This document shows, piece after piece, positions 11,165 to 62,846 of a DNA stretch of 64,000 nt (positions within the stretch are counted from its first letter, which is position 1; each line of letters opens with the position of its first letter). Where the stretch lies: positions 666,937 through 730,936 of the forward strand of contig OZ246401.1 of the NCBI GenBank assembly GCA_965230965.1. Direction: 5' to 3'. Both the position numbers and the translations under genes were made by a program. The DNA comes from an uncultured Gammaproteobacteria bacterium. GTDB lineage: Bacteria; Patescibacteriota; Microgenomatia; UBA1406; HO2-37-13b. Below the pieces are notes generated by a model, which saw nothing but the letters and a program-made list of their open reading frames with translations, did no database searches and was not told the origin of the DNA.

Positions 11165-11173
11165 ATAATATTT

Positions 11174-11225: not shown

Positions 11226-11231
11226 ATCACC

Positions 11232-32756: not shown

Positions 32757-32759
32757 TGT

Positions 32760-38682: not shown

Positions 38683-38688
38683 ACGATC

Positions 38689-38717
38689 ATTCTAGTTAAG
38701 AATAGAGGAGATTACAA
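38689..38717 (-). promoter_or_regulatory. internal promoter TTGTAA-17-TAGAAT, with the -10 box 6 nt upstream of the ATG at 38682
   Basis: Minus strand reads cTTGTAAtctcctctattcttaacTAGAATgatcgtATG. The -35 box overlaps the stop of the upstream gene. Confidence 0.45.
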
Positions 38718-39506
38718 GAGAGAAATCTGACTGGTGAGCAAGGTGTAATCGAGCGCATTTACTTTATTGTCATTATTTAGGTCGCCCATAAGCCCCGGAC
38801 CTTGTTCGCCATACGTATCTAAGACGATAAATAGATCAAATGTATTGCAGGCGTTGTCATGATTGAGATCACATGTAGTTGTCAACGCCGAATCTGTACG
38901 TGCGGCTGGGTCGGCTTGTTTGCCAGCTCGTCTTTCAACGACCCAGCCTGCCTTTAATGTCATATTACAATCCATTGATATATTTTTTACTGTGTCCAAA
39001 TCAATAGTCTCAGTCACATCATCTTGAAGCGTTGCATTATTGCAGAGGTGTGGGTGGGTGGGTGAGGAGCATGTGTTAATTTCCTGCTTCACTATAGCAA
39101 ATAGATCGCTTTGGTAATTTAATTTTAACGATGTGCTTTCACCCTTTCGATACACATCAATACTTCTTGGTAAAGAACTAAATGTAAGTGCATCAGCAGT
39201 ATGTAAGTATTCCATACGCGGCAATTCATTAAAATACAAAGGCTGCGCATTTGGTCTCACGCCATCAATGACGTTCCACGCTAGGATGTTAATATCTGGA
39301 TATTTTTCAATTGAAAGTGGAATTTCTTGGCCGACCTCATCCTTTTCATATACATATATTTCAGCATTGATAGGGCAATACACAGGTTTGTATTCTTGTG
39401 CACTTGAAAAAAGAGCAAAGGGGCGATCGGTTTGTAGGGTAAGTACGCCGATGATAATCCCAAAGGTGAGAAAAAGAATACTCGAAACAAACGTTATTGC
39501 CTTCAT
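38712..39506 (-). CDS. secreted protein with a C-terminal dockerin-like module
   Basis: Signal/TM anchor. C-terminal CDLNHDNACNTFDLFIVLDTYG / DLNNDNKVNALDYTLLTSQ. Confidence 0.7.
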   Translation of the reverse strand: MKAITFVSSILFLTFGIIIGVLTLQTDRPFALFSSAQEYKPVYCPINAEIYVYEKDEVGQEIPLSIEKYPDINILAWNVIDGVRPNAQPLYFNELPRMEYLHTADALTFSSLPRSIDVYRKGESTSLKLNYQSDLFAIVKQEINTCSSPTHPHLCNNATLQDDVTETIDLDTVKNISMDCNMTLKAGWVVERRAGKQADPAARTDSALTTTCDLNHDNACNTFDLFIVLDTYGEQGPGLMGDLNNDNKVNALDYTLLTSQISLL

Positions 39507-42055: not shown

Positions 42056-42076
42056 TTGTCTTTAATCCTTTATATA

Positions 42077-42622
42077 TTATCGAACGGTAATAGTAACTGG
42101 TTCAGCTGTACCAAGTGTATTGGTGCCAGTATGAGCAGTAATAGTTAGATCTTTATTAAAATCTATTGTAGCCGTTCCAGAATCCATTGCGGTTACGGTA
42201 AAGGTGAAAAGAGTGCCTGCTTTTAGATCTGTTGGATTATTGGGATCCACAGCAGAGGAGACGATAAGCTGATTATCTTTTATTTCACTACGTAGAATGT
42301 CAGGAAACACGGTGCCATTGACAATGTCTGAGGCCTTCAGAAGCTTTGCATCAAATGTCAAAACAACGTCAGCTGCTTGTGAAGGGGCACCTGTGAGTTC
42401 AACAGCAACTTGCGTACTTTCACCCTTGTTCAAACTTGTGACTTGAGGCTTTAATACAAGCTGTGTGGTACCTAATTGATTCTCTGTTTTGGAACCAGTC
42501 ATTCCAGATTTGCCTTTTTGGGCAAAGAGAAGCCCCATAATCAAACTAACAGCAAAGACAAAAAAGATGATGCCGATAAGTGCAATATTTTTATTAGGTT
42601 GAAGGGTTTTAGATTGATCCAT
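42077..42622 (-). CDS. membrane-anchored cohesin-like domain protein
   Basis: TM helix [21 protein letters not shown], then [77 protein letters not shown] at 42622 (MDQ...) preferred because the ATG at 42631 lies inside the -10 box and the paralogue starts MDN. Confidence 0.65.
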
Positions 42623-42629
42623 GAGAATC

Positions 42630-42659
42630 ATTGTACGGGTTATAAAAGTTGTTTGTCAA
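42630..42659 (-). promoter_or_regulatory. promoter TTGACA-18-TACAAT, with the -10 box 7 nt upstream of the ATG at 42622
   Basis: Minus strand reads cTTGACAaacaacttttataacccgTACAATgattctcATG. Confidence 0.5.
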
Positions 42660-42673
42660 GAGAAAATAAGAGG

Positions 42674-45600: not shown

Positions 45601-45679
45601 AAAGAACAACCATTGACACAATGGTTAAAAGTGAGGCTACTTCACCTCGTTGTCTTTGCGAACGCTCAAAATATCTCAT
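42674..45679 (-). CDS. vWA-domain surface protein with a TadE/G-like N-terminal hydrophobic segment and a C-terminal dockerin-like module (paralogue of 39503..42055)
   Basis: N-terminus RSQRQRGEVASLLTIVSMVVLSIGLLVG. vWA DYIFVIDTSSSM ... GTCIEDGL ... HVVFLTDGMPN. C-terminal DINGDGVINTIDLFLIYDNYF / DLNNDQIVNSLDVSIIVNSMG. Confidence 0.8.
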   Translation of the reverse strand: MRYFERSQRQRGEVASLLTIVSMVVLSIGLLVGYQINRNSATINPAPQAAGPTTTSPIPAEGVDRHDQVCFPGGDKNQQVRDKYCRTRMYPALLTRDIIKTADARAKQIFNQIFQGTEQSKQNPLIVAVTAKDQRTLQIYGGLCLNRSSVAGNGRLSTEDVEVYISLFGVRKFYDDKGQVGIEENDINDVLRYKIAAAEDKAASNNTDELFVARARDEVCTFTNGKVDATDYRKTDNPLLFNIQAAKASIKSAIERAKQDPTIHQKFDEEACEVYIHLRDNITAGDKAKPKDTYNIFKINLRDVLGEDEAKDLCNPNVTPTPTTGQGGSPTPSVPVTVTPLVSPTPTGPLSGTPSVTPPVAQCYQRCTPITKCDVDPATGKRMLCLNVDGFNILPPTFPTTAKNTDGANNVLSICQNGDVDCLCLPQRCQANPGSCESPDLACPNVKVSPTPTNPLVSITPAKTVTPPPPTITTTTGTPQACSFDALAYVQECLEIDATGQCKRAGNGRFQAKAIQANVLNGWGASNNKQIAGGRYGTNPATPFQYQTNTFVGAFDGLKVRFPYLSTLQFSEMSFLDYQASVPIPAGKNPLEPGSAADLTPEGRAKNPILIAPVHQYPNEQYFNRENASVRLYANFGNKEYRVVPDGNEIAYCNNALMGTAIGACNLASFQSSRFDNTVDPASRDPRDTIDGLTVGCGQNIVYGWTLQKCNTAPADYIFVIDTSSSMTTGKDASGQLKIDAAKKALRTFLTNIKTYGKDSRAALVQFSSTANTATVQDLTTNIDSVLGAVDTKLRYQSGTCIEDGLRETISLLKRNGTARKTHVVFLTDGMPNCPEGNPNPGSEDVIIKLGTEIKAIPNTTVYGIGVGDPTKTGVNADAEILRVIQHFTSTPDLAFSTTSEVSIEEIYNSIEVSLNSCARSDALYANFVSSQDINGDGVINTIDLFLIYDNYFARGQDVPEDLNNDQIVNSLDVSIIVNSMGKVVPQENNTAQKVIGDVFN

Positions 45680-46251
45680 TATTTAACAGTAATAGTTACG
45701 GGTTCCGTCATACCTAACGTATTGACACCGTTTGTTGCTGTGATGGTAAGATCTTTATCAAAATTTAATGCCGCTGAACCAACACCCACACCTTTAAGCG
45801 TGAAGGAAAAAAGGGTTCCAGTTTTAACATCCGCTGGATTATTTGGATCTACAGCTGCAGAAACAATAACTTGGTTGTTAACTACCTCGCTACGAAGAAT
45901 GTCAGGAAAGACATCACCATTTGTAATGTCAGAGATAGCAACAAGTTTTGGATCAAATGTTATGACAACATCAACTGCTTGGGCACCTGTATCGTTCACA
46001 TTAACGCTAACTTTTGTTGCAGCTCCTTTTGCGATTGATGGTGATTCAGGAACAATGCTCAGCTGTGACATGCCTTTATTCGTATCCTTTATCACATCAC
46101 TTGGGGCTTTACGGAGCCCACTTTGACCAGCAAAATAAAGACCCGCACCAATGCTTAATGCAAAAATGACAGCAATAATCGAAAGGGCTTTGAGTTTTTT
46201 TTGAGGGTGAAGCGTATGAAATTCTTGAATATCATCCTGTACATTGTCCAT
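45679..46251 (-). CDS. membrane-anchored cohesin-like domain protein (paralogue of 42077..42622)
   Basis: TM helix ALSIIAVIFALSIGAGLYF, then [58 protein letters not shown]. The first base of its stop codon (45679) is also the A of the downstream gene's ATG. Confidence 0.65.
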   Translation of the reverse strand: MDNVQDDIQEFHTLHPQKKLKALSIIAVIFALSIGAGLYFAGQSGLRKAPSDVIKDTNKGMSQLSIVPESPSIAKGAATKVSVNVNDTGAQAVDVVITFDPKLVAISDITNGDVFPDILRSEVVNNQVIVSAAVDPNNPADVKTGTLFSFTLKGVGVGSAALNFDKDLTITATNGVNTLGMTEPVTITVK

Positions 46252-46257
46252 CCCATC

Positions 46258-46287
46258 ATTCTACGGCCTGGGAAAATGCTTTGTCAA
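46258..46287 (-). promoter_or_regulatory. promoter TTGACA-18-TAGAAT, with the -10 box 6 nt upstream of the ATG at 46251
   Basis: Minus strand reads cccTTGACAaagcattttcccaggccgTAGAATgatgggATG. Confidence 0.55.
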
Positions 46288-46320
46288 GGGTTTTTTTGAA
46301 CAATTTTACAAGTCCGGGGC

Positions 46321-46857
46321 TCAGTATTCAGGAAATTCATTGAGATCATTAAGTAATACGCAGCCATCCTGATTTATATCAAGTGCGGGATTATAGTCTG
46401 TATCACCTTTGCATGCACCATACACATCGTTTGAATAGGCTGAAGCATCTATACCAAATGTTTTACTTAATGGGCTCGCAGGTACAAAAACCTCAATAGG
46501 TTCCTGATCACCACTATATATATAACAATAATAAGGTGTATTGGCATTCAGGGTCACATTAAATTTTTGTGTATTAATAAGGTGTTGTGTGGAAGGCTCG
46601 CCGTCTTCGCCGGCGAAAAATTTAACACCTGTGCGCGATAGCGCACATTGAAGACTTGTTGCGACAGATGTTGATGTTTGATAGGTAATTTCTGCAGCAA
46701 CATTTGAGATACGCACGGCTTTTGCATTCAGAATTTCTGTATTACCTGATGCCTTTGAACGTAATTGAGTTGTGTAATATACACCGCCAAAAATGAGCGG
46801 CAATAAAATCAGGGATGCAATGATCAAAAGCGTGCGTGGATTCATATTGTGCATCAT
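46321..46857 (-). CDS. membrane-anchored beta-rich protein with a single dockerin/EF-hand-like Ca-loop
   Basis: N-terminal TM. FN3-like segment ...HLINTQKFNVTLNANTPYYCYIYSGDQEPIEVFVPAS. C-terminal DINQDGCVLLNDLNEF. Confidence 0.55.
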   Translation of the reverse strand: MMHNMNPRTLLIIASLILLPLIFGGVYYTTQLRSKASGNTEILNAKAVRISNVAAEITYQTSTSVATSLQCALSRTGVKFFAGEDGEPSTQHLINTQKFNVTLNANTPYYCYIYSGDQEPIEVFVPASPLSKTFGIDASAYSNDVYGACKGDTDYNPALDINQDGCVLLNDLNEFPEY

Positions 46858-47648
46858 AGCAAAATCTTTATCAAAATGCTTAATAACGTTAGGCCAACTC
46901 CTATTGCGATTGCCAACGTTGTTGGCTCAATATTGCCCGTCTCAGGAAGTGTTGAAGGGGTGGGGCCTGTCGTGGGGGTGGGGGAAATAGCAAGAGTCGG
47001 CGTCAGGCTTATTGCTAATGTTGGAGTCGCCGACGCAATTTTTGGTGTCACCGAAGGTGTTAGAGATTTACTCAGTGTAGGTTTTGGGGTGCCGCTCAAT
47101 CCTGATGTTGGCGCAGGATTGCTGCCTGTACCGCTCACCGTTATTTTTGTGCTTGTGGCTTTGCTACAATCTATTATGTCAGTTACGCGCTGATTTCTTT
47201 TGAGCGTTATGTTTGAGTCAGTAGTTTTTCCGTCTTCGCATTGCACACTTGCCAATGTTTCGCCATCGGCTATGCCCTGAAATACTATTGTCGCGATCAA
47301 TCCATCGCCCGATTGCGGTGTTCCTTGAGGAAGAATTGCAGACCCCACAAAAACTTTATTGGCCTTATTATTCAAGAAAAAGCGGGGAAAGAATTTTTCA
47401 CTTTGTTCAGGTTCTTTTACTTCTACCACTTTTAATTTTGCAGGATCATATACAACAATAGCATCAGTCGTTGTTGGTTTTTCACCTTCAGTATTAATAC
47501 GAATATTAACCTCAAGTTTTGTATTGTCTGTCACAGAGCCCGAAGTTGGATCGAGATAGATGTACGCGGCGTTAATAGATGTTGCACTAAAAAGAAAAAT
47601 AACCAAGCAAAAAGCTAATGCATATACAAATAATTTATATGACCCCAT
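46854..47648 (-). CDS. sortase-anchored cohesin-like scaffold protein (LPETG)
   Basis: Signal peptide. Cohesin-like IYLDPTSGSVTDNTKLEVNIRINTEGEKPTTTDAIVVYDPAKLKVVEV..GLIATIVFQGIADG. PT linker. LPETG at 46935..46949 followed by a hydrophobic helix and a K-containing tail. ATG at 47648 preferred over the TTG at 47666. Confidence 0.75.
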   Translation of the reverse strand: MGSYKLFVYALAFCLVIFLFSATSINAAYIYLDPTSGSVTDNTKLEVNIRINTEGEKPTTTDAIVVYDPAKLKVVEVKEPEQSEKFFPRFFLNNKANKVFVGSAILPQGTPQSGDGLIATIVFQGIADGETLASVQCEDGKTTDSNITLKRNQRVTDIIDCSKATSTKITVSGTGSNPAPTSGLSGTPKPTLSKSLTPSVTPKIASATPTLAISLTPTLAISPTPTTGPTPSTLPETGNIEPTTLAIAIGVGLTLLSILIKILL

Positions 47649-47655
47649 ATGTAGG

Positions 47656-47684
47656 ATGGTACACAATAGGTAGAGAATTCACAA
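47656..47684 (-). promoter_or_regulatory. promoter TTGTGA-17-TACCAT, with the -10 box 7 nt upstream of the ATG at 47648
   Basis: Minus strand reads aTTGTGAattctctacctattgtgTACCATcctacatATG. It is back-to-back with the plus-strand promoter at 47691. Confidence 0.4.
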
Positions 47685-47690: not shown

Positions 47691-47719
47691 TTGACAATGA
47701 TTTTGAAACTATCTATAGT
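47691..47719 (+). promoter_or_regulatory. promoter TTGACA-17-TATAGT upstream of the glutaredoxin-like gene
   Basis: cTTGACAatgattttgaaactatcTATAGTtgattatagatATG (ATG at 47731). Confidence 0.55.
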
Positions 47720-47730
47720 TGATTATAGAT

Positions 47731-48420
47731 ATGAAGATTACTGTTTATACTATTACTGACTGCCCGTTTTGCAAACAAGAAAAGGAATTTCTTACGGCCC
47801 AAGGCCTTCAGTTTGAGGAAAAGAATGTTCAAGAAAATCGACAGTTTTTAACAGAAATGCTTGATGTCTCGGATAAGTTTGCAGGTGTTCCTTTTACTTT
47901 GGTAGAGAAGGATAGTGGAGAAAAAATTGGACTTAAAGGATTCACGCAAAGTGAGTTTGAAGCAGCACTTGGTTTATCTGCGGCCGCTCCTGCAGCCCCA
48001 GCCGCTATGTCAGCTGCTCCTGTCGATATGCCAGCTGCTCCAGCACCCTCTGTTGCTGATCCAATGCCAGCACCAGCACCAGCTGACCCAATGACGGTCG
48101 TGCCTGCGGCTCCAGTAGATATGCCTACAACATCAACTACCACATCTATGCCAGATGCGGCACCAAATATGCCTTCAATGCCAGGGATTGACGAAGCCCC
48201 AGCTGCTCCTGCTCCAGTAACAGCAGCCCCCAATATGCCATCTGCAGCACCAGTAGAACCAGCACCAGCAAATCCACAGAATCAACTCGATGGTCTCTTG
48301 GCTGATCTTCAAACAAAAGCACAGCCAGATCTTCCAGATTTTACTGCTCCTTCTGGTCCAACTGTTCCAGCGGCGCCAGTTAATACAGCTGCTGATCCAA
48401 TGACAGCGCCTCAACAATAA
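47731..48420 (+). CDS. glutaredoxin/NrdH-like redoxin fused to a long Pro/Ala-rich tail
   Basis: MKITVYTITDCPFCKQEKEFLTAQGLQFEEKNV (CPFC active site), then ~140 aa of AAPAAPAAMSAAPVDMPAAPAP...AAPVDMP...APNMPS repeats. Confidence 0.75.
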   Translation: MKITVYTITDCPFCKQEKEFLTAQGLQFEEKNVQENRQFLTEMLDVSDKFAGVPFTLVEKDSGEKIGLKGFTQSEFEAALGLSAAAPAAPAAMSAAPVDMPAAPAPSVADPMPAPAPADPMTVVPAAPVDMPTTSTTTSMPDAAPNMPSMPGIDEAPAAPAPVTAAPNMPSAAPVEPAPANPQNQLDGLLADLQTKAQPDLPDFTAPSGPTVPAAPVNTAADPMTAPQQ

Positions 48421-51474: not shown

Positions 51475-53160
51475 TTAGTTATAAATTGCTTTTCGTATAT
51501 ATTCAAACCAAGGCGAGAGGGCAGCTGAACCCTTTTTAAATTCACCTTCCCATGCCTTGTAATCATTGTCGTCTGTTGGCGTTGTGCAGTTGTAATTTCC
51601 TTTTGCTGCTTCTTCTGGACATGGATGCGCTTTTGGTGCGCTTGTTGGAGCCCCAGCTGGGTTTGTAGGTGCTGGTGTGGTGCCGCTACTTGTTGGTTGT
51701 GGGGCACTTGTTGGTTGTCCTGGGACATTACATGTAGGAATATTGCCACTTTTTACTGCATCAACTGCAGCTTTAAGATTTAGACGACCATGGCCGTAGA
51801 TTTCATCCCAGCCGGTTGCGCCCAAGTCATCAGCTGTACATTGCAGCGCATTTTGTACTTGATCTGGTGTTAAATTAGGATTTATGGAAAGTAAAACGGC
51901 AGCAGCACCGACGACGTGAGGTGTTGCCATACTTGTACCTGAGATTGTATTGTAGCCGGTTGAAGGCCATGTTGATTCAATCTGTACGCCCGGAGCAGCA
52001 ATATCATTTGCATTTCCTCGATTGGAGAAAGATGCTGATTGATCGCTTGAAGTCGTTGCGGCGACTGTAATTACTTCTGGATATGCCGCGGGGTAGGTAT
52101 AGTCAGAACTTCCACGTTGTGTCTGGTCTGGAAGCGGACATTTTTGTGATTGTGGTTGTCCCCAACAATTACCAGCAGCCACAATAACTGTGACACCTGA
52201 ATTTTTTGCATTGATTATTGCGTTATGAAAGGTGGTTGAATCACCATTGCCTCCAAGACTCATATTTATGACTTTATTTCCATCGGCTACTGCTTTATTA
52301 ACACCTGCGGCAATACCTGCCATTGATCCTGAACCACCTGAACAGAGTACGGCGTAGCCATTAATACTTACTGCCCAGTTTACGCCGACTACGCCTTGGC
52401 CATTGTCACCAACGGCGCCGATTGTTCCTGCAACGTGCGAGCCATGACCACCAGTGTCAACGGTATCTTGACATCCGGTGCCAACACCCTCACTTTTTAA
52501 CACATTTGCTTTTAAGTCTGGATGATTTACTTCAACACCCGTATCGACGACAGCAACTTTTACGGAGTTGGATCCCGTCGTGATATCCCATGCTTCTTCA
52601 GCATTAATTTTTTTCATTCCCCATAAGTTACTGAATTTTGGATCGTTTGGGGCCTTAGAAGCTGAATATATATAGTTTGGCTCTATATACTCAACATTAT
52701 CCATTTTGTTGTAATCATTGAGGATATCATTAGGATTTGCGTTGCTACTATATTTATATAGATATGTTTCTTTAAAGAGGGCCTCGGCCCCAGGATTGCC
52801 ATAAGTTTCGATTGCTGCAGTAGATTGTAGGTCATATTTATTTTCAAGTGTTTTGAAAGAATTTAATTCTGCTTGTGGGCCAGATTGTATGCCCAAGAGA
52901 GAACGGACGCGACGCAAAAAAGTAGGGGCTTGGTCTTCTGAGGATGTCGCGGCTTGAAGTTGAACAGGTGAGTGGCCATCTTTATATTTAATAATAAACT
53001 GACCAGGAACATATTGACCTGGCTCGAGGGTGTATATCTGTGGCGATGATTGTGCTTGTGCTGGTTTCGATTGATGAAGAAATGTCAATAATCCAATAGC
53101 GAGTAGTGAAACTAATGCAAGGGATAGTAATGAAAATTTAAGATATTTCATATCAATCAA
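51475..53160 (-). CDS. secreted subtilisin-like serine protease (peptidase S8) with an N-terminal propeptide
   Basis: Catalytic triad blocks VAVVDTGVEVNHPDL (Asp), GHGSHVAGTIGA (His) and SGTSMATPHVVGAAA (Ser). Signal peptide, I9-like propeptide (QFIIKYKDG...YIEPNYIYSA), and a Pro/Thr-rich C-terminal tail. Confidence 0.9.
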   Translation of the reverse strand: MIDMKYLKFSLLSLALVSLLAIGLLTFLHQSKPAQAQSSPQIYTLEPGQYVPGQFIIKYKDGHSPVQLQAATSSEDQAPTFLRRVRSLLGIQSGPQAELNSFKTLENKYDLQSTAAIETYGNPGAEALFKETYLYKYSSNANPNDILNDYNKMDNVEYIEPNYIYSASKAPNDPKFSNLWGMKKINAEEAWDITTGSNSVKVAVVDTGVEVNHPDLKANVLKSEGVGTGCQDTVDTGGHGSHVAGTIGAVGDNGQGVVGVNWAVSINGYAVLCSGGSGSMAGIAAGVNKAVADGNKVINMSLGGNGDSTTFHNAIINAKNSGVTVIVAAGNCWGQPQSQKCPLPDQTQRGSSDYTYPAAYPEVITVAATTSSDQSASFSNRGNANDIAAPGVQIESTWPSTGYNTISGTSMATPHVVGAAAVLLSINPNLTPDQVQNALQCTADDLGATGWDEIYGHGRLNLKAAVDAVKSGNIPTCNVPGQPTSAPQPTSSGTTPAPTNPAGAPTSAPKAHPCPEEAAKGNYNCTTPTDDNDYKAWEGEFKKGSAALSPWFEYIRKAIYN

Positions 53161-53645
53161 AACGCGTGAAATGTATAATTTGGTTCTGCGTATTCAACTT
53201 CAGGTAGCGCTTCATATGTTTTAATCGCGTCTTCAATGCTTTTCGAAGGGTCTAATTCGATGACAAATAAGTTTCGCTGATTTTCGTCATTAGCATCAAA
53301 TATGCGTGTTTTGTTTTTTGCACCAGCTTTTTCATCAGCAGCTTGGATACGTGCTAATTTATCTTCTGGTAAAGCCTGTTTTGCCATTTTATATTTGAGA
53401 TTTTCGAAAAAAAGGCGGATAGAACCAAAAGTACTGGATCGCTCGACTTTTCGTTCGTCGACTTTAAGCTGTAGTGCTTGTGGGGAAAGGTCTTTCTTAT
53501 ATTTGACAATGACCTGGTTAGGAGTGGGCTGTGTAGCAAAACTATTGGTTGTGTTGGTTTTAGGTGTTGCGGCCATTGTGGGCGCTATAAGGGCGAAGGA
53601 AGTGAAAGCTGCGAGCAATAAAAGAAATGATATGTGCTTTGCCAT
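53157..53645 (-). CDS. secreted free-standing subtilisin-propeptide (inhibitor I9)-like protein
   Basis: Signal peptide. QVIVKYKKDLSPQALQ ... AIKTYEALPEVEYAEPNYTFHAF mirrors the propeptide of the downstream S8 protease. 4-nt overlap with that gene. Confidence 0.6.
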   Translation of the reverse strand: MAKHISFLLLLAAFTSFALIAPTMAATPKTNTTNSFATQPTPNQVIVKYKKDLSPQALQLKVDERKVERSSTFGSIRLFFENLKYKMAKQALPEDKLARIQAADEKAGAKNKTRIFDANDENQRNLFVIELDPSKSIEDAIKTYEALPEVEYAEPNYTFHAF

Positions 53646-55419: not shown

Positions 55420-55446
55420 TTCTTATGAAGAGCAGCTACAAAAAAA

Positions 55447-55470
55447 GGCCCCGATTCGGGGCCTTTTTTT
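55447..55470 (+). terminator. rho-independent terminator after rplL
   Basis: ggccccg-att-cggggcc 7-bp GC stem followed by seven T and preceded by an A-run. Confidence 0.85.
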
Positions 55471-55491: not shown

Positions 55492-55520
55492 TTGACACTG
55501 ATTTTCAGCTATGTTTTACT
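55492..55520 (+). promoter_or_regulatory. promoter TTGACA-17-TTTACT, with the -10 box 7 nt upstream of the ATG at 55528
   Basis: aTTGACActgattttcagctatgtTTTACTtattcctATG. Confidence 0.5.
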
Positions 55521-55527: not shown

Positions 55528-56817
55528 ATGAACACACGGTTCGCCGCTATTGCTGGTACACTTCTCGTTGGCCTATCTCTTTTTGTCACCACGCTCATTA
55601 CGAATAACCTAAATAACAGCACATTATCAACATCTTCGCTTGCAGCGGGGAGAAGCGGCACGTGTAAAGCCTTTGCTACCTGTGAGAAATGCGCTCCAAC
55701 TTGTACTGGCTCACAATGCACTAAAAAAATAACGCAAGTTGGATGTAAATATATAGATGAAAATGGTCAAGAGGTAATTGTGCCCGTGCCAAGCGATATG
55801 CCGCTACCTACGCAACAATATACCGGAGATGGCAATCCTTATGCGTGCATACAACCTAATTCTTGTAGTGTATATGCTGCAAGATTAACCTCAAAATTTC
55901 AAAATTGGTGTGAAGGTTTTTGTAATGGAACAAGACGGGCTCCTCAAAATACTTCAACGCCATCCCCAACACAAGCCGCCACTCAGCCATACTGTACTTC
56001 AACAGTTCCCGCAGGTGCAAGATGTGATGGCTTAGGTGTGTGTTGTGCAAGTGGGTCATTCTGTATAGATCTTGGTGCGCCAGGGAAGTATTGTTTGGGC
56101 ATATCGCCCACACCAGGAGCGTTCCAATGTCTTAATGGTTCATTTAAAGGTTCAAAGTATGGCTGCAATAATCCAAATGTACCAGGAGGTAATCCATGTT
56201 GTGCACCACGAACCTGTAAAGTAGTAGCCGAATACCCTGGACCTCCAAAAAGCTATGATATTGACTGTGTGTTGCCAACATTAACACCAACCCCGTCTCC
56301 AACACCACGAGCAGGTTCGTGCTTTGACTCCTGCAGTGGCAATGCTCCTGGGCAATGTATAGAAGGTTCTTGCAGAAGCTTAAGTGATCCAAGTAATCCA
56401 AATCCAGATTGTAGAACAAAAGGAGATTGTAAATGCATTCGCAATGACACCTGTAAAGATGATAAATCGAAGGATTGTCTTTGCTTCGATCCTCAGTCGT
56501 GTCCAAATCTTGATGAAGGAGATTTTGATTTATGTGGATGTTGGCGTCGAGATGCGACTGGTAAATGTTTGAATCCAGCTGGTGAATGTAAAGCTCCTCT
56601 AGAATGTTCAGAGAAGGTTGGGGTAGGCTACTGTACAAGTAAGTATTGTGTAACCCCAACTCCAACACCAGATTCACCTTGGTTTAAGAATCCCGTTGAC
56701 TCTGAGAGGTCTCAAGAAGTTCGTATTGAAAGAATATTAAGAGCGAATCCCAATGTCACTAGACAACAATTAGAGAGCCTTCCAAATCAATATCGCAGAA
56801 ATCTGGGTCTTGATTAA
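55528..56817 (+). CDS. secreted cysteine-rich protein (hypothetical)
   Basis: TM/signal MNTRFAAIAGTLLVGLSLFV. Many Cys, e.g. GTCKAFATCEKCAPTCTGSQC and PDCRTKGDCKCIRNDTCKDDKSKDCLCFDPQSC. The ORF-track GTG at 55471 abuts the terminator, so the ATG at 55528 is preferred. Confidence 0.6.
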   Translation: MNTRFAAIAGTLLVGLSLFVTTLITNNLNNSTLSTSSLAAGRSGTCKAFATCEKCAPTCTGSQCTKKITQVGCKYIDENGQEVIVPVPSDMPLPTQQYTGDGNPYACIQPNSCSVYAARLTSKFQNWCEGFCNGTRRAPQNTSTPSPTQAATQPYCTSTVPAGARCDGLGVCCASGSFCIDLGAPGKYCLGISPTPGAFQCLNGSFKGSKYGCNNPNVPGGNPCCAPRTCKVVAEYPGPPKSYDIDCVLPTLTPTPSPTPRAGSCFDSCSGNAPGQCIEGSCRSLSDPSNPNPDCRTKGDCKCIRNDTCKDDKSKDCLCFDPQSCPNLDEGDFDLCGCWRRDATGKCLNPAGECKAPLECSEKVGVGYCTSKYCVTPTPTPDSPWFKNPVDSERSQEVRIERILRANPNVTRQQLESLPNQYRRNLGLD

Positions 56818-56823
56818 CATTTA

Positions 56824-56853
56824 TTGACACCCACATTCCGTTTGTGCTATGCT
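56824..56853 (+). promoter_or_regulatory. promoter TTGACA-18-TATGCT, with the -10 box 6 nt upstream of the ATG at 56860
   Basis: aTTGACAcccacattccgtttgtgcTATGCTtgataaATG. Confidence 0.5.
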
Positions 56854-56859
56854 TGATAA

Positions 56860-57438
56860 ATGCTGAATATAAGAAACATTTCTTTATTATTTCTGCTTGG
56901 TTTTTTACTTTTTTCTTCAACTACGCCCACCTATGCACAAAGGCCCGTTGGACAATGCGGTCAATCCTGTCCAGCAGCAGGTTGCCAGGTAGGGAAGCAG
57001 TGTATTAATGGCACGTGCTATGAAGCAGGCTGCAATCCCGCCGGTGGTGATCCTCCATGTTGTAAGTCGCAACGTGTAATCCGTCCAACAACCCCTCCGG
57101 GTGGAGGTGGTGGTGGTGGAGGCAGCCCAACAACTCCTGGCACAACGCCAGGTACTATTGTGACGCCCGGACCTGGTAAAAGTACGACACCTGGCATGAC
57201 ACCATTGACCCCATTTATTACCATAACCCCAGGTGGTCCAGTAGGCGGTTCTGCAGGTGACTGCTCAGGGCCTACAGAAGGTGTAAAAGATGGCAAAGTT
57301 GACCTGGTTGATTTCAATTTACTTCGCAAAGAACTCAGTGGAAGTTCTACAACAGTAGCATGTGATTTCGACACAAATGGTCTTGTAGATTTGTTAGACT
57401 TTAATATATTTAGAATAGCGTTTATCGCTCAGAAATAA
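56860..57438 (+). CDS. small secreted Cys-rich protein with a C-terminal dockerin-like module
   Basis: Signal peptide, CGQSCPAAGCQVGKQCINGTCYEAGC, a Gly/Pro/Thr spacer, and C-terminal KDGKVDLVDFNLLRKELSG / CDFDTNGLVDLLDFNIFRIAF. Confidence 0.7.
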   Translation: MLNIRNISLLFLLGFLLFSSTTPTYAQRPVGQCGQSCPAAGCQVGKQCINGTCYEAGCNPAGGDPPCCKSQRVIRPTTPPGGGGGGGGSPTTPGTTPGTIVTPGPGKSTTPGMTPLTPFITITPGGPVGGSAGDCSGPTEGVKDGKVDLVDFNLLRKELSGSSTTVACDFDTNGLVDLLDFNIFRIAFIAQK

Positions 57439-57444
57439 CGAATA

Positions 57445-58266
57445 ATGAACACAACAACCAGGCTTACCGTACTTGGGTTAGTTTTTGTATTATCCACGTT
57501 ATTTTTCTGGCAAGCAATTAATACCTACCTTATTCCTTCAAAAGCCCAGCTTGCGCCAAATATGAAAATCTTCATATCAGAGAAGGCGATTCAATGTAAC
57601 GATAAAATTGATTCACTTTGTCTCGTGCATATTTTTGGTTCAACGGATGCGACTACTGGTGTTGCGGGTGTGACCGGAGCAATGGCATTTTCAGAGAATC
57701 TTGCACTCCAAGGCATAACTCAGGAAGGATTTTGTGGTCAGGCTTCGTTTGGCCTTGATTTGGTCTTGAAGTATGCGCCAGTGACATCAGGGCTTAAATT
57801 TTCACTAGGTAGCTTAAAGGGTGATAACTTATTGGCTTCTGGCACAAAGTGTATTACAACTGTTGGTTTTAAGCGAGTTCCTACCTCAAATGGTGGTACG
57901 GCAACTGATGCTAAAGTAGTGCTAGCAGATGCAGCACAGTGGCAGGGGGTTGGTTCTAAGGCCATTGTTCCTGATGTTGACACAACACCGGTCGGCATAA
58001 CATTTTCGCCGAATGCACCTATCCCAAGTATTACAATTACACCACCCCCAATAGGTGGACCTGTTAATCCGCCATTAACGCCACCAGCTGGTGGGAGTTG
58101 CTCTACAAAATCAAAAGGCGATTGCAGCTGTGACGGCAAAATAAATGTTGAGGATTGGGAGATACTCAGAAGCTCAATACGAAGTGAAGGTCAAGCGTGC
58201 GATCCAAACGGTGACGGGACTATAAATAGTGTCGATTTATCAATCTGGAAAACTAACCATGACTAA
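57445..58266 (+). CDS. secreted beta-rich (possibly cohesin-like) protein with a C-terminal dockerin-like module
   Basis: Signal/TM anchor. Beta-rich segment ...GVAGVTGAMAFSENLALQGITQEG...KCITTVGFKRV. C-terminal CDGKINVEDWEILRSSI / CDPNGDGTINSVDLSIWKTN. Confidence 0.65.
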   Translation: MNTTTRLTVLGLVFVLSTLFFWQAINTYLIPSKAQLAPNMKIFISEKAIQCNDKIDSLCLVHIFGSTDATTGVAGVTGAMAFSENLALQGITQEGFCGQASFGLDLVLKYAPVTSGLKFSLGSLKGDNLLASGTKCITTVGFKRVPTSNGGTATDAKVVLADAAQWQGVGSKAIVPDVDTTPVGITFSPNAPIPSITITPPPIGGPVNPPLTPPAGGSCSTKSKGDCSCDGKINVEDWEILRSSIRSEGQACDPNGDGTINSVDLSIWKTNHD

Positions 58267-60034
58267 TAACAAGATTTCAATGCGTGTACCATTCTTTATT
58301 TTCGTAGGTCTTGTTGCCATGGTGTTTTTCGGTAGTTTTGTAAATCGCTATGTTCTTCAATCAAACGCTGCTCAAAGCAAGATCAGCGTTGAATTTTCTC
58401 CACAAACAGGAACACTTGGCGATGCACCATTCCGCATTGTTCTAAAGCCCGAAAAAACAACAGACAAAGTTTCTGGAGCAGATGTCACCTTGACTGTACA
58501 AAATGGAACAATTAGTTCATGGCTTCCTTGTAAGCCGCTCGAAGAAGGAAAGACGCCGCAAATAAAGCCCTTGATTGAAACGATTGGTACAAATCCACGA
58601 TATAGCTGTGTTGTGCTTGATAAAGATGAGAATTTGGTATCCGGCTTGATTATCTCTGGAGCAGTGCAGTGTTCTGGAACAGCACCTGTCATTATTTCAC
58701 TTGACACACAAAAATCACAAGTGAGTGGTCCTGTTGAAGGGGCTTTGTATAGCTTTAATCCTTCACAAACGGTGACATACACCTGTAATGGTGCAGGAAC
58801 AACACCAACGCCAATTCCTTCAGATGTAAGTGCAGAGTTTGATCCAACGACCTGTCGTGGCGATAAGGGGAGCGCGTGTAATTATGGCTTGACCATCAAA
58901 TCTAACGATGGCGCAAAGAAAATTTCAGGGTATTTTGTAAAGATTAATTTTGATAAGACTATTCTTAAAGGAAAAGCGGCTGCAGGCCCAGCATCGGTAA
59001 AAGGATTGCTTGCACAAGCAATTGTGCCTACAAATACTCCTGCTCCTGTAATTAATGCACCAACAGCTGTACCTGCCGCACCAACAGCAGCACCGGGAGC
59101 TCCAACAACAGCGCCGGGTACACCGACGGGTATAGCTTCGACACCAACTGTTACTGGTGGTGTGACACCAACCGGTTCTATAACAGGCACAATAACACCT
59201 CCCGTAGGTGGTGGGAAACCTGTCATTGTGCCTCCAAAAGAATCTACCTGTAGTATGGTTACTGCTGATGTCGATAATGAAAAAGGTGTCATGACATTGC
59301 TTTATGTGTGTGATAGCGCAAGTGCAGAGCTTAAAACAAGCTATACAAACACACTTACGTTTGATGCTATCGCCGAGGGCGAAGGGTCTTTAAGTATTGC
59401 AGATGTTCAGGTTGTAGGCCCACAAGCAGTGGCTGGGCTTTATAGTGTGAATAAAGGCACAGCAAAATATATTATTGGTCAGGGCGGTGGAAACGTTGAT
59501 GTGAAACTCAAGCTTCGCATGCAAGGTATTACCAAGAAGCCATCCAAGCGCGATACTATGCAGGTTCGCATCGGTGTGGGTGATGGTGGACTAGCCGAGC
59601 CAGTCTATAAGACCGTCGAATTCAAATCCGATGAAAACGGCCACTTTAGTGGAACAGCGAGCTTCAATGTTCCATCACGCAAAGATTATAAGCTGCTCGT
59701 GAAGTGTGAACACTGCTTACAACGCAAGGTTTGTGATAAAGATGCAAAAGAAGCCGAAGCAGCTTCATACAGCTGTGATAAAGGAAAGATTGAGCTTAAA
59801 AATGGTCAAAATAGCTTCGATCTCTCAGGTATAGTGCAATTAGCATGTGATATTCCTGCCGGCAAACAGGATGGCGTGTGTAACTCAGCTGACTTTGCAC
59901 TCGTACGCAACCTGCTCGGAAAGACCGATGAAGATTCTCTTCGAAAAGCTGACTTGAACTTTGACGGCATCGTCAATGCCCTCGATTTCTCAATAATGAC
60001 AGCGTCACGAATAAATGTTGCAGATATAAAATGA
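58259..60034 (+). CDS. secreted multi-module (cohesin-like repeats?) protein with a C-terminal dockerin-like module
   Basis: Signal/TM anchor (ATG at 58259, MTNNKISMRVPFFIF). Beta-rich modules KISVEFSPQTGTLGDAPFRIVLKPEKTTDKVSGADVTLTV and KKISGYFVKINFDKTILKG. PA/T linker. C-terminal CNSADFALVRNLLG / DLNFDGIVNALDFSIMTA. Confidence 0.7.
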   Translation: MTNNKISMRVPFFIFVGLVAMVFFGSFVNRYVLQSNAAQSKISVEFSPQTGTLGDAPFRIVLKPEKTTDKVSGADVTLTVQNGTISSWLPCKPLEEGKTPQIKPLIETIGTNPRYSCVVLDKDENLVSGLIISGAVQCSGTAPVIISLDTQKSQVSGPVEGALYSFNPSQTVTYTCNGAGTTPTPIPSDVSAEFDPTTCRGDKGSACNYGLTIKSNDGAKKISGYFVKINFDKTILKGKAAAGPASVKGLLAQAIVPTNTPAPVINAPTAVPAAPTAAPGAPTTAPGTPTGIASTPTVTGGVTPTGSITGTITPPVGGGKPVIVPPKESTCSMVTADVDNEKGVMTLLYVCDSASAELKTSYTNTLTFDAIAEGEGSLSIADVQVVGPQAVAGLYSVNKGTAKYIIGQGGGNVDVKLKLRMQGITKKPSKRDTMQVRIGVGDGGLAEPVYKTVEFKSDENGHFSGTASFNVPSRKDYKLLVKCEHCLQRKVCDKDAKEAEAASYSCDKGKIELKNGQNSFDLSGIVQLACDIPAGKQDGVCNSADFALVRNLLGKTDEDSLRKADLNFDGIVNALDFSIMTASRINVADIK

Positions 60035-60861
60035 TAGAAGAATTGAAAGAACACAAATCGCTGTTGATAGCTCTTATAGTGGTCCTTTTACTGGCTGCTG
60101 GTGGCATTATGTTCCTTCAAGGAACGCGCAAAGGCACGAGCATTCAAACCGGGAAGAAAAATAGTGTTACCCCAAGTTCAAATGAGGTTGTAAAAGGAAG
60201 ATTGAGCATAGAGCCAATGACAGGTAGACAAATTTATGAAGTGGGTGAGTCGATCACGCTTTTATTGCGTGGCAATTCTGATGGAAAAGATGCAGTTGGT
60301 TTTGATGCAGCAGTTAAAGTAAATCAAGATGTAATGACGTTTAGTCAAGTCAAGTCTCTGCTCACCACATTCGAAACCTTTAGTAACGTAAATGCAGAGC
60401 GCGTATATATTGGGGGGATTCGAAAGCTAGATAGTAAAAATGCTACAGTTCTTGATAATACCGATCTTGCTGAGGTTACGTTTAAAGCACGAAGTGAAGG
60501 TCATTCAAATGTTGATTTCCTCTTTAAACCTGACGACACAACAGAATCAAACATTGTCCTTACAAGCTCAAAAGACGGTCTGGGAGATGTAAAAGGTACT
60601 GATATTTATGTAGGAAAGAAGGTTGCGCTTACTACAGATAGTGCTGTAGTTGTCCCTAACGCGAATTTCAGATTAACATTAAAAAACATAACAACCGAGT
60701 CGGCTCAAATTGACATTGCCCTGGGCAATCAAACTGATACAAAGAAATTTACATGGGGGGTTGGAGGAACAGTATCAAAAAATATAGAAACGTTTTCTGG
60801 TTTTATGTTTCAAGTTGAAAAAACAAGCCCGAATGGCGTAACTGTCTATTATGGAAGATGA
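60031..60861 (+). CDS. membrane-anchored cohesin-like domain protein
   Basis: TM helix LLIALIVVLLLAAGGIMF, then RLSIEPMTGRQIYEVGESITLLLRGNSDGKDAVGFDAAVKVNQDVMTFSQV..LAEVTFKARSEG. ATGA overlap with the upstream gene. Confidence 0.6.
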   Translation: MIEELKEHKSLLIALIVVLLLAAGGIMFLQGTRKGTSIQTGKKNSVTPSSNEVVKGRLSIEPMTGRQIYEVGESITLLLRGNSDGKDAVGFDAAVKVNQDVMTFSQVKSLLTTFETFSNVNAERVYIGGIRKLDSKNATVLDNTDLAEVTFKARSEGHSNVDFLFKPDDTTESNIVLTSSKDGLGDVKGTDIYVGKKVALTTDSAVVVPNANFRLTLKNITTESAQIDIALGNQTDTKKFTWGVGGTVSKNIETFSGFMFQVEKTSPNGVTVYYGR

Positions 60862-61483
60862 TAAAGAAATAAAAAACAAAATGATGCTTACCGGCATATT
60901 GTCTATTGTTGGCATCGTTCTTGTGGTGGGAGGTATTATGTACGTTGCGCAAAGAAAACTACCTGAAAAGTACAAAACACAGGAGAAAAATTTGTTAAAT
61001 ACTATCGTTCACAATGCAGAGCCGACACAAGCCCCACTTACCGGTGTGATGAATATGAATGTAAAATCAGCGAAAGAGGCGTATAAAAAAGGCGACTTGG
61101 TAACGCTTACTGTTTCTGCTGATTCAAAAAATGATCATATTGCCGGGTATGATGTTGTTTTGCGCTACGATCCAACACTTTTGAAGGTTGATAAAGTAAC
61201 ATCGTTGGTAGAAGGCATGGATTTGTATCAGGCAAGTACGCCAGCAGAAGTCCCAGGTTTGCAGGATCTTGTGGTGACAGGTATTCAAAGTATTAGTCAG
61301 AAAGATCCGTACGTGTTTGCAAACACGCCGATTGCTGAGGTGACATTCAGTGTATTGAAGGTGGGTACGGCAAATGTGGATATAGTGTTTACGCCAAACC
61401 ATACTGCCGACTCTAATCTCATGAATACGCAAACACAAGATATTTTGAGCAACGTAGAAGGGCTCACGTTGCAGATTAATTAA
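60851..61483 (+). CDS. membrane-anchored cohesin-like domain protein
   Basis: TM helix LTGILSIVGIVLVVGGIMYV, then KKGDLVTLTVSADSKNDHIAGYDVVLRYDPTLLKVDKVTSLVEG..IAEVTFSVLKVGTANVDIVF. Confidence 0.65.
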   Translation: MEDDKEIKNKMMLTGILSIVGIVLVVGGIMYVAQRKLPEKYKTQEKNLLNTIVHNAEPTQAPLTGVMNMNVKSAKEAYKKGDLVTLTVSADSKNDHIAGYDVVLRYDPTLLKVDKVTSLVEGMDLYQASTPAEVPGLQDLVVTGIQSISQKDPYVFANTPIAEVTFSVLKVGTANVDIVFTPNHTADSNLMNTQTQDILSNVEGLTLQIN

Positions 61484-61485
61484 GT

Positions 61486-62142
61486 ATGAAATATAAGGGT
61501 ATTGTAACAATATGTGTGCTCGGATGGCTCCTCGCAGCAGCGCCGATTCTCGGCGCAGTATCTGCTGCGACGCTAAAATTTGATCCGAGCACGGTTAGTA
61601 CAAATGTCGGCGAGACGTTTAAGCTTGATGTGGTCGCCGACGCAGAAGAGAAGGAGATTCTTGGGGTTGACGCCCTTATTGAATATGACCCGGCTATCTG
61701 TGAAATTGAGAGTATCACCGATGGTGATTTCCTCGAAATCGGTATTAAAGAATTTACGCAGCCAGGCAAAATTTATATTGCCGGCGTCGTCTCTAACCCT
61801 GGCGAGTCAGTAACAGGAGAAGGTGTGCTTGCATCGGTGCAATGTAAAGCCAAGGCTTCAGGAAAGACCACGTTTACCTATACGTGCGAAACTGGCGAGA
61901 CAAATGAATCAAACATTTCTGAGAAATCCACCGATGCACCAGATTTAATTCAATGTGCATCGAATGGAGAAGCTGTTGTTACGGTAGGAGGCAGCACAAA
62001 GACAAAAGTTTCTACCGGTAGTGGGAAGACGCCATCAGAGTTGCCCCGTACAGGTATTGTTGAAGACTTTATGTTGTACGGAGCTATCGGACTGGGCTTT
62101 ATGATGATAGGCCTTGGCGCAAAAGCGCTTTTACGCATATGA
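61486..62142 (+). CDS. sortase-anchored cohesin-like protein (LPRTG)
   Basis: Signal peptide. LKFDPSTVSTNVGETFKLDVVADAEEKEILGVDALIEYDPAICEIESITDGDF..GVLASVQCKAKASG. LPRTG at 62041..62055 followed by a hydrophobic helix and the KALLRI tail. Confidence 0.75.
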   Translation: MKYKGIVTICVLGWLLAAAPILGAVSAATLKFDPSTVSTNVGETFKLDVVADAEEKEILGVDALIEYDPAICEIESITDGDFLEIGIKEFTQPGKIYIAGVVSNPGESVTGEGVLASVQCKAKASGKTTFTYTCETGETNESNISEKSTDAPDLIQCASNGEAVVTVGGSTKTKVSTGSGKTPSELPRTGIVEDFMLYGAIGLGFMMIGLGAKALLRI

Positions 62143-62846
62143 ACAAAAAATCACAAAAAATAGCAGCGATTGGTATTGGATTTATTCTTTCAGTACTTCT
62201 TATTTATATTGGCTTTCGTATTGTGCAAAAAAGAGGCTCACAAGCAGGTGTAACAGAGAATTTCAAATGTGTAAGAAGCAAAGATACAGAAAGCACCTGT
62301 ACCTGGACAAGTAGAACTGATGAAGTCGGCCGTATTTTATATGCAAGTATGCCACCAGGCGGCCTTCAAGATTGCAGTCTTGTTTTTATAGCTGAGGAAC
62401 TTGGCACGCCAGTTGCTTTGGGTGATGGTAACTTTGAACATACGGTTGTTTTGCAGCCACTTGTTTCAAAGCAGAGTTATTGTGCAGCCCCAGCAGGTAG
62501 TGAGGACAATATGATTGAAGTTCCTGCTTCAGTAGACGGAGCAAGCGCAGGAACTACTGGAGGTACCGGAGGGCAAACAGTACTCGATGTAACCCCAAGT
62601 CCAACCACAGGTGTTGTGATTGAGCCGACAGCAGCCCCGACAAGTCCCCAAGCACTTCCATCGCCACAACCATCACTTGGGACAACTACAGACACAGAAA
62701 TTGATGCCTACTTTAAGAACGCATCAAGTACAGACGACTGGGGTGACTGCTTGGACTATTTTGAGAAGAAAGGTCAGCAAGTAAGTGGTAACGCCTGTAT
62801 TAAGGGCTATTATCGTCATAACGTAACTCCAACCCCAGCTTCTTAA
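62139..62846 (+). CDS. membrane-anchored beta-rich protein with a Pro/Thr tail (counterpart of 46321..46857)
   Basis: TM helix IAAIGIGFILSVLLIYIGF. ...HTVVLQPLVSKQSYCAAPAGSEDNMIEVPAS resembles ...YYCYIYSGDQEPIEVFVPAS of 46321..46857. Same position immediately after an LPxTG cohesin gene. Confidence 0.5.
   Translation: MNKKSQKIAAIGIGFILSVLLIYIGFRIVQKRGSQAGVTENFKCVRSKDTESTCTWTSRTDEVGRILYASMPPGGLQDCSLVFIAEELGTPVALGDGNFEHTVVLQPLVSKQSYCAAPAGSEDNMIEVPASVDGASAGTTGGTGGQTVLDVTPSPTTGVVIEPTAAPTSPQALPSPQPSLGTTTDTEIDAYFKNASSTDDWGDCLDYFEKKGQQVSGNACIKGYYRHNVTPTPAS

Follow-up and report, generated by a model that had tools for sequence, protein, structure and literature searches.

The locus examined here raises the question of whether a tiered cohesin-dockerin scaffold, with adaptor proteins that carry both kinds of module in one chain, is encoded in the small genome of a Candidate Phyla Radiation (CPR) bacterium. 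Nearly everything known about cohesin-dockerin assembly comes from cellulose-degrading Firmicutes. The window, that is, the whole stretch of 64,000 nucleotides that was analysed, corresponds to bases 666937-730936 of a 938-kb host genome, which is one contig (OZ246401.1) with a G+C content of 41%. Within the window, cluster 2 comprises eight plus-strand genes, g1 to g8 (55528-62846), and cluster 1 lies at 30633-47666; close homologues of the cluster proteins occur in ‘Microgenomates bacterium OLB23’ and similar metagenome-assembled genomes, which places the organism in the Microgenomates group of the CPR. A preliminary description of this DNA had placed the eight open reading frames (ORFs) after the rplL terminator, where all of them were found, and had suggested that g3 and g4 join cohesin-like, beta-rich modules to dockerins. 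On balance, we favour the reading of cluster 2 as the genes for a surface scaffold that is built in several tiers from cohesins and dockerins and is non-cellulosomal.

An adaptor scaffoldin binds dockerin-bearing proteins through its cohesins, while its own dockerin attaches it to another scaffoldin (PMC4959524). One or more cohesin-fold modules and a dockerin were found in a single polypeptide in both g3 and g4, so that the adaptor interpretation holds at the level of modules and of architecture, which is of the adaptor-scaffoldin type. The dockerin tails attributed to the two proteins were confirmed by Pfam, scoring 27.1 bits (g3) and 35.2 bits (g4) against the gathering cut-off of 22.9 bits for Dockerin_1 (PF00404); that for Cohesin (PF00963) is 24.1 bits. 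Two D-x-N/D-x-D-G...D loops are readable in the g3 dockerin, and that of g4 has a 3-residue insertion in its first loop.

The N-terminal module of g3 is predicted to have a cohesin fold. Family alignments were assembled with 16 members (g3) and 8 members (g4), and both structures were predicted with AlphaFold2 (AF2). The g3 model reached a pLDDT of 76 overall and 80-92 across most of residues 40-190 (core approximately 85). When it was compared with the Protein Data Bank (PDB) using Foldseek, cohesins or cohesin-like modules accounted for 49 of the 50 best matches, with E-values from 8e-8 to 2e-5 and target-normalised TM-scores of 0.68-0.74 (single-module entries). These matches span type I, II and III cohesins, the non-cellulosomal cohesin of Archaeoglobus and cohesin-like modules of C. 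perfringens, and the structural test that the preliminary description had called for thus supports its view of this module. By sequence, support for this module is weak, and no Pfam Cohesin match was obtained for it. With the g3 domain profile, the relative P0041 gave E 1.3e-13; over the same region it reaches a sub-threshold 17.3 bits against PF00963, and it also carries a dockerin. In a sister genus (locus L017), the protein at the g3 position combines a g3-type module with a Pfam Cohesin match above the cut-off (27.6 bits) and with a dockerin detected by a window-derived hidden Markov model (HMM; 9e-12), for which Pfam gave nothing at E <= 0.01. In the collections searched, the g3-type module is rare and lineage-restricted: the cohesin-fold domain was present in only 15 clusters among 1.84 billion representatives, and weak Pfam Cohesin matches were seen in only 2 of 10 scanned relatives. 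A scan of genome contigs with the g3 family returned four relatives only, plus one spurious Phycisphaerae dockerin match.

For g4, the unspliced protein gave no cohesin in Pfam. Profile searches of the PDB with the whole-protein family alignments of g3 and g4 (A1 and A2) matched dockerins only, which places the cohesin modules beyond the reach of plain HMM comparison, and the same alignments gave no significant match to the seven window cohesins (hhalign P 0.13 and 0.048). The cohesin signal surfaced only after the domains had been cut out, the g4 linker removed and relatives added. In the AF2 model, modules were resolved at residues 40-178 (pLDDT approximately 75), 190-240 (approximately 82) and 330-400 (approximately 75), with residues 242-328 disordered. 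The best PDB match of this model was 3l8q_C, a pair of type II cohesins from ScaA, an adaptor of A. cellulolyticus (E 1.8e-10), in an alignment of 427 columns against a 335-residue target, approximately the dyad plus the linker. When the two parts of module 2 were spliced (188-242 joined to 328-408), the family profile matched the Pfam-positive LPxTG cohesin of locus L014 at E 2e-7, as well as the LPxTG cohesins of L016 and L004, with one alignment running across the splice point; in hhalign, module 2 matched the alignment of 35 cohesins with P 2.9e-5 over 108 columns. Because the linker-free profile matches Pfam-positive cohesins across the splice, module 2 is read as a cohesin with an insertion in one of its loops, which comes after the strands with the conserved pattern ‘isGy-v-i-fDk-iLk’. 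Module 1 is probably a cohesin as well: it aligned with module 2 at P 0.0015 and weakly with cohesins at P 0.004, its best three PDB profile matches were weak ones (E 0.07-0.29) to R. flavefaciens scaffoldin chains that we take to be cohesins, and no Pfam match was found for it in 8 family members. The explicit search for cohesins recommended for g4 was therefore positive, by fold through the 3l8q dyad and by sequence through module 2. The X module that follows matched no family in Pfam or the PDB.

In several g4 orthologues (P0019, P0023, P0025 and P0026), the linker carries a 43-aa, 6-Cys mini-domain that is missing from the window g4 and from L001. The tail of this mini-domain, CDIPAGxxxGxC, resembles the first loop of the g4 protein's own dockerin (CDIPAGKQDGVC). 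The possibility that the insert is the Cys-rich module of g1 or g2 was rejected, since it matched neither.

An alignment of the dockerins of all loci revealed three classes in cluster 2, each of them kept throughout the family, with the cluster-1 dockerins forming a fourth group. Class A, shared by g4 and the M4 proteases of sister genera described below, has the pattern GDLPxGxQDG...NAVD and in every case stands behind the X module. The g3 dockerin makes up class B, C..KGDCxCDGKID..DWE.LRS...CDVNxDG, with four invariant Cys, and class C (g2) reads GDCSGP..G.KDGKVDL.DF.LLRKE...CDFDTNG.VDLLDF. The last of these is treated as a divergent dockerin. The description of g2 as a Cys-rich dockerin protein stands as regards its 8-Cys head and its orthologues, whose tails matched Dockerin_1 in 8 of 8 cases (best E 6.9e-5); g2 itself falls short of the Pfam cut-off, since the whole protein scores 18.3 bits and its domain, taken alone, 21.5 bits. 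In addition, the g2 tail matched the g3 dockerin in BLASTP (7.5e-6), and its PDB profile matches were weak, EF-hand pairs being mixed with dockerins. Across the genome, we counted 7 sequence-recognisable cohesins, all in the window, and 12 dockerins, 10 of them in the window. A whole-genome search with the window-built cohesin HMM found no further cohesin, the best non-member being g4 at E 1.6.

The sockets to which these dockerins could attach are encoded directly downstream of the two adaptor candidates. As had been proposed, g5 and g6 have N-terminal TM (transmembrane) anchors and cohesins: g6 scores 39.6 bits against Pfam Cohesin and is also found by an HMM built from cluster-1 cohesins only (5.6e-5), and g5 counts as a third anchored cohesin because of its BLASTP match to its paralogue g6 (5e-19 across 186 aa). 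The LPRTG-anchored cohesin g7, likewise as proposed, scores 45.1 bits and is a paralogue of the LPETG cohesin of cluster 1 (E 2e-16). Its sorting motif is followed by IVEDFMLYGAIGLGFMMIGLGAKALLRI, a hydrophobic stretch with a basic tail, and most g7 orthologues retain LPxTG. Three sortases (PF04203) score above the cut-off in the genome, one of them inside the window at 6521-7237, and from the signal layout together with these enzymes g7 is predicted to be a sortase substrate. The presumed TM partner of g7, g8, proved to be membrane-anchored and can now be refined to an FN3-like protein by way of distant homologues. The g8 HMM matches a protein of locus L019 (2251-2976) at 3e-6, which itself scores 38.8 bits as Pur_ac_phosph_N/fn3, and distant homologues of both g8 and its cluster-1 counterpart score as FN3-type Pur_ac_phosph_N. 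In the Pfam scan of cluster proteins, g1, g5 and g8 matched no family.

Gene order across relatives indicates that this arrangement is not due to chance, since it is conserved in at least nine genomes. Within the genus, the order rplJ-rplL-(g1)-g2-g3-g4-g5-g6-g7-g8, followed by an M50 peptidase gene on the opposite strand, is kept. It is also kept, with changes, across one Microgenomates family (at least nine genomes), and full-length g3 matches were obtained in nine genomes of this family (f1). Identity to genus-level orthologues is 78-88% for g3, g4 and g7, the same as for ribosomal protein L10, and 60-76% for g5, g6 and g8, approximately 60% for g2 and approximately 45% for g1. The junctions from g3 to g8 consist of overlaps of 8, 4, 11 and 4 nt plus a single 2-nt gap, and because the genes overlap or abut, g3-g8 are probably one operon.

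At five other loci (L004/L012, L014, L016, L017 and L021), the g5 orthologue is followed by one additional gene, which falls between the g5 and g6 orthologues wherever the contig goes on (all but L021). It encodes a thermolysin-like M4 peptidase of 950-1100 aa that ends in a g4-type X module, a beta-sandwich, and then a dockerin of the same class, so that the family-wide order becomes rplJ-rplL-(g1)-g2-g3-g4-g5-(M4-X-Doc)-g6-g7-g8. The shared ends of g4 and the M4 proteins read as an X-module-dockerin dyad in the cellulosome sense. No M4 peptidase was found in a whole-genome search of the window's genome. Because sister genera hold M4 in the cluster and this genome has none, the lack of enzymes in the window cluster is read as the outcome of a recent loss and not as a trait of the system itself; this loss would have been a clean one, given that the window g5 and g6 overlap by 11 nt. 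The earlier statement that there are no recognisable enzymes is thus right for this genome and fails for the sister genera, where a dockerin-bearing M4 protease belongs to the same cluster. Neither in g1-g8 nor in cluster 1 did we find any glycoside hydrolase or carbohydrate-binding module (CBM) family at the Pfam cut-off, and for this reason cluster 2 is not a cellulosome.

If the modules function as their families suggest, the dockerins would plug calcium-dependently into cohesins of matching specificity, and g3 and g4, acting as adaptors, would add three sockets to the three anchored cohesins g5-g7. Such additional sockets are plausible because the 12 dockerins of the genome face 7 anchored cohesins. 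The recurrent order of an X-dockerin protein followed by a membrane cohesin, seen also in L019, leads us to propose that the X-dockerin of g4 sits on the g5 cohesin and that of the sister-genus M4 protease on the g6 cohesin. The wall-linked base would be g7, and g2 and/or the dockerin proteins of cluster 1 would dock on the free cohesins of the two adaptors. In this way, the scaffold would hold Cys-rich proteins, and a protease in sister genera, in place of cellulases. The conservation of g3, g4 and g7 at the level of L10, while g1 and g2 diverge fast, fits a constant platform presenting variable binding or attack modules toward a host cell or substrate.

Several observations weigh against this multi-tier scaffold. 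The g4 model has low confidence overall (pLDDT 59), and its Foldseek list also includes integrins, pilins and other generic proteins made of several beta-sandwiches. The g3 cohesin lacks significant sequence similarity to cohesins, with hhalign P-values that went from 0.07 against the 35 family cohesins to 0.0047, over 94 collinear columns, when extra relatives were included. The hydrophobic segments at the N-termini of g3 and g4 are long (approximately 20 aa) and could be uncleaved anchors, in which case the two proteins would not be free adaptors. Finally, the g2 dockerin is below the Pfam cut-off and is also missed by the cluster-1 dockerin HMM.

The weak sequence similarity of the g3 module also favours a simpler arrangement with one tier of display, in which g3 and g4 would be dockerin-tagged cargo, their cohesin folds would not bind dockerins and would instead bind glycan or host protein or serve as spacers, and g5-g7 would hold one dockerin class each. 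Three anchors and three dockerin classes would make a tidy 1:1 correspondence. Moreover, the g3 cohesin module and g4 module 1 contain conserved pairs of Cys, which TM-anchored cohesins lack, and the jelly-roll beta-sandwich is common also to CBMs. Foldseek, however, puts cohesins, not CBMs, on top for g3, and g4 module 2 is homologous in sequence to cohesins that Pfam recognises. The sister-genus protein at the g3 position, with its Pfam-level cohesin and HMM-found dockerin, argues in the same direction, as does the excess of dockerins over anchored cohesins, which would make further sockets useful. One-tier display is, in our assessment, unlikely.

A self-assembling fibre is improbable. In it, the dockerin of g3 (or g4) would bind a cohesin of its own type, or g3 and g4 would alternate, to give an unbranched, head-to-tail filament rooted on an anchored cohesin. 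One cohesin and one dockerin per chain are the minimal polymerising unit, g3 and g4 are translationally coupled through their 8-nt overlap and equally conserved, and self-recognising cohesin-dockerin proteins have reportedly been found in Archaeoglobus fulgidus, whose PDB entry 2xdh is among the g3 Foldseek matches. The three distinct dockerin classes argue instead for specificity between different partners, and the adaptor scaffoldins known to us avoid self-binding. Very improbable is a membrane-resident lattice in which g3 and g4 keep their helices as anchors, all of g3-g8 stay in the membrane or wall and dockerins cross-link neighbouring anchors in cis, with no outward hierarchy. The long N-terminal AF2 helices (g3 aa 3-28, g4 aa 9-37), with hydrophobic cores of approximately 20 residues that exceed typical signal peptides, speak for it. 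Against it stand the invariant P-S-K-A-Q (g3) and S-N-A-A-Q (g4) motifs straight after the helices, which, judged from sequence, resemble signal-peptidase sites: positions -3 and -1 hold small residues, like those of TYA-Q in g2.

The multi-tier scaffold can also be set against known systems. The Ruminococcus flavefaciens protein ScaC is a small secreted protein with one cohesin and a C-terminal dockerin, encoded in a scaffoldin cluster (Rincon et al. 2004, PMC387807, as cited in PMC4959524). This architecture is shared by g3, which is of similar size (273 aa), although the g3 cohesin is recognisable by fold only, its dockerin has four conserved Cys, and its host is a CPR bacterium whose system has no glycoside hydrolases. 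The order of cohesins, X module and dockerin in g4 is that of ScaA and ScaB of A. cellulolyticus and the type II X-dockerin of CipA of C. thermocellum (PDB 3l8q, 4fl4 and 2b59), where, as here, the X-dockerin is thought to sit on an anchoring cohesin and the dyad recurs on other proteins of the system. In contrast to those scaffoldins, g4 carries just two cohesins and lacks a CBM. The X module of g4 has no Pfam or PDB match, a Pro/Thr linker of 85 residues divides the second cohesin, and cluster 2 uses TM helices or a sortase signal for anchoring where the others use SLH modules. The layout of g7 (signal peptide, one cohesin, LPXTG and hydrophobic tail) is that of R. flavefaciens ScaE (PDB 4iu2/4iu3, among the g3 Foldseek matches); unlike ScaE, g7 is always followed by the membrane-anchored, FN3-like g8, and the pair has a second copy in cluster 1. 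Conserved Cys pairs in the dockerins also set cluster 2 apart from the known systems.

Outside cellulose degradation, ORF2375 of A. fulgidus (PDB 2xdh) has been a source of tools, its dockerin in PMC4959524 and the cohesin-dockerin pair in PMC12484212. It resembles the present case in that one protein bears both modules in an organism that degrades no cellulose, and differs in that here a conserved, operon-like cluster of eight genes, in a reduced CPR genome of 0.94 Mb, provides three anchors, two adaptors and dockerins of three classes. Cluster 1 uses the same module families, with the gene pair of LPxTG cohesin and TM-anchored FN3 protein and with TM-anchored single cohesins; its cargo, however, consists of large proteins with vWA or unknown modules, none of its proteins combines a cohesin with a dockerin according to Pfam, and only cluster 2 supplies candidate adaptors and an X-dockerin. 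The literature searched gave no account of a tiered system of cohesins and dockerins from the CPR; the closest item was a passing remark in PMC10633639 about an essential dockerin protein of a Saccharibacterium.

The remaining genes and the boundaries of cluster 2 are listed with the features above in Table 1. The cluster sits straight after rplJ-rplL, with a terminator in between, whose G+C hairpin and T-run have a predicted dG of -39.8 kcal/mol (z -6.5 against shuffles). The starts of g1 (ATG 55528) and g4 (ATG 58259) fit the N-termini of orthologues. The promoter-like site of g1 lies so close to its ATG that a leaderless mRNA is implied, and those of g1 and g2 would be of the leaderless type. 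The first gene product, g1, was correctly described as Cys-rich and dockerin-free, and it would be secreted or anchored: it has 40 Cys in 429 aa (the genome median of Cys is 0.7%) and an N-terminal hydrophobic segment, and neither a dockerin nor any Pfam or NCBIfam family was found in it. A search of 5.8 billion clusters gave only 7 homologues. Its C-terminus is a conserved non-Cys tail of approximately 45 aa (...SPWF...ILRANPN.TR..L..LP...), present in L007 and not in L001.

Further observations concern the neighbourhood and the lineage. Upstream, on the minus strand, an S8 subtilase gene and a separate propeptide-like gene (51475-53645) also stand beside rplJ in L001 and L002, with S8 only in L004; the subtilase appears to travel with the cluster because it is kept next to rplJ in relatives. 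It was rejected as a dockerin protein, since neither Pfam nor the dockerin HMM finds a dockerin in it. TM-anchored cohesins have zero Cys, and the dockerin proteins of both clusters (9 of 9) have even Cys counts, from 6 to 42, which suggests extracytoplasmic disulfide bonding. A glutaredoxin-domain ORF (47719-48420) lies between the two clusters. Elsewhere in the window, a 1680-aa RHS-repeat protein (15703-20745) has an N-terminal dockerin, detected by the cluster-1-only HMM at E 1.9e-11 and by Pfam at a sub-threshold 19 bits, and for this reason this toxin-like protein may also be docked on one of the window cohesins. The dockerin ORFs outside the window are at C1:791566-792144 (+, 193 aa) and C1:561136-562344 (-, 403 aa). 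Dockerins were found in 68 of 151 genomes of the order, and in another family of it, locus L019 (genome G098, 2251-11503) holds a differently composed cluster of the same syntax. It begins with a pair of dockerin proteins, followed by an X-dockerin protein whose Cys repeats are those of the EB module, then by a pair of cohesins and finally by two FN3 (Pur_ac_phosph_N) proteins with TM segments.

Table 1. Features of cluster 2 and M4 genes of related loci. Nucleotide positions of cluster 2 are those of the window; M4 positions are those of the locus named.
Feature	Nucleotides	Residues	Strand	Basis or remark
rplL intrinsic terminator, upstream bound of cluster 2	55441..55470		+	AAAAAAAGGCCCCG-ATTC-GGGGCCTTTTTTT
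Promoter-like site of g1	55492..55520		+	TTGACA-17-TTTACT, 7 nt upstream of ATG; consensus match only
g1, secreted or anchored hyper-Cys-rich protein without dockerin, fast-evolving	55528..56817		+	Cys count, family scans
Promoter-like site of g2	56824..56853		+	TTGACA-18-TATGCT, extended -10 TG, 6 nt before ATG; consensus match only
g2, small 8-Cys dockerin protein	56860..57438		+	Signal peptide, 8-Cys head, Gly/Pro/Thr linker, class-C dockerin
g2 8-Cys head	56938-57069	27-70	+	
g2 class-C dockerin	57256-57432	133-191	+	Pfam Dockerin_1, sub-threshold
g3, one-cohesin adaptor candidate	57445..58266		+	Pfam dockerin, AF2, Foldseek
g3 N-terminal signal or anchor		1-35	+	Invariant PSKAQ
g3 cohesin-fold module	57556-58020	38-192	+	Then Pro-rich linker
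g3 class-B four-Cys dockerin	58099-58254	219-270	+	Pfam
g4, two-cohesin X-dockerin adaptor candidate	58259..60034		+	Pfam dockerin, AF2, Foldseek, spliced profile
g4 signal or anchor		1-37	+	
g4 cohesin-like module 1	58370-58804	38-182	+	
g4 split cohesin module 2	58820-58984 + 59240-59482	188-242 + 328-408	+	Spliced profile
g4 Pro/Thr linker interrupting module 2	58985-59239	243-327	+	
g4 X module	59483-59842	409-528	+	
g4 class-A dockerin	59843-60022	529-588	+	Pfam
g5, TM-anchored cohesin	60031..60861		+	BLASTP to g6
g5 N-terminal TM anchor		10-31		
g5 cohesin	60193-60615	55-195		Followed by C-terminal 80-aa module without family match
g6, TM-anchored cohesin	60851..61483		+	TM aa 12-34, cohesin aa 61-210
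g7, sortase-type cohesin	61486..62142		+	Signal peptide, cohesin aa 28-168
g7 LPRTG sorting signal	62041-62055	186-190	+	Then hydrophobic tail, KALLRI
g8, TM-anchored FN3-like protein	62139..62846		+	g8 HMM via L019 homologue
g8 TM segment		8-29		
g8 FN3-like domain		38-128		Then Pro/Thr linker and small 2-Cys C-terminal domain
M4 X-dockerin gene, L004	13711-16536			
M4 X-dockerin gene, L014	10611-13481			
M4 X-dockerin gene, L016	5944-8796			
M4 X-dockerin gene, L017	12992-15901			
M4 X-dockerin gene, L021	4495-7800			

A more far-reaching interpretation, which we put forward tentatively and consider rather doubtful, is that cluster 2 is a host-contact organelle of this ultra-small bacterium, a plug-and-socket mast with g7 or g5 as base, g4, extended by the Pro/Thr linker in its split cohesin, as spacer and g3 as second-tier adaptor. 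Equally tentatively, g2, and perhaps g1, would be its fast-evolving disulfide-knot tips, joined by the thermolysin-like protease in sister genera and projected tens of nanometres to bind and breach the envelope of a host or prey cell. If this were the case, tip swaps on a constant mast, such as the loss of M4 and the gain of g1, would track host switches. In the same tentative vein, the interrupted loop of the split cohesin may act as a display site for an extra mini-domain, which would be a new use of the module.

What the favoured scaffold reading adds to the biology of the lineage is a full multi-tier grammar, encoded beside the L10/L12 genes of a CPR bacterium whose genome measures 0.94 Mb. 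It comprises anchors of the TM and the sortase type, adaptors with one or two cohesins, the X-dockerin dyad and dockerins of three classes. The parts are already known; the arrangement, with Cys-rich proteins or a protease instead of cellulases, is what differs. If the proposed pairings hold, the system would provide an example of a cohesin tolerating a large loop insertion (g4 module 2) and would supply protein engineering with new orthogonal pairs of cohesin and dockerin, disulfide-braced dockerins among them, and it would offer a tractable entry to the surface organisation of CPR bacteria and to their attachment to partner cells.

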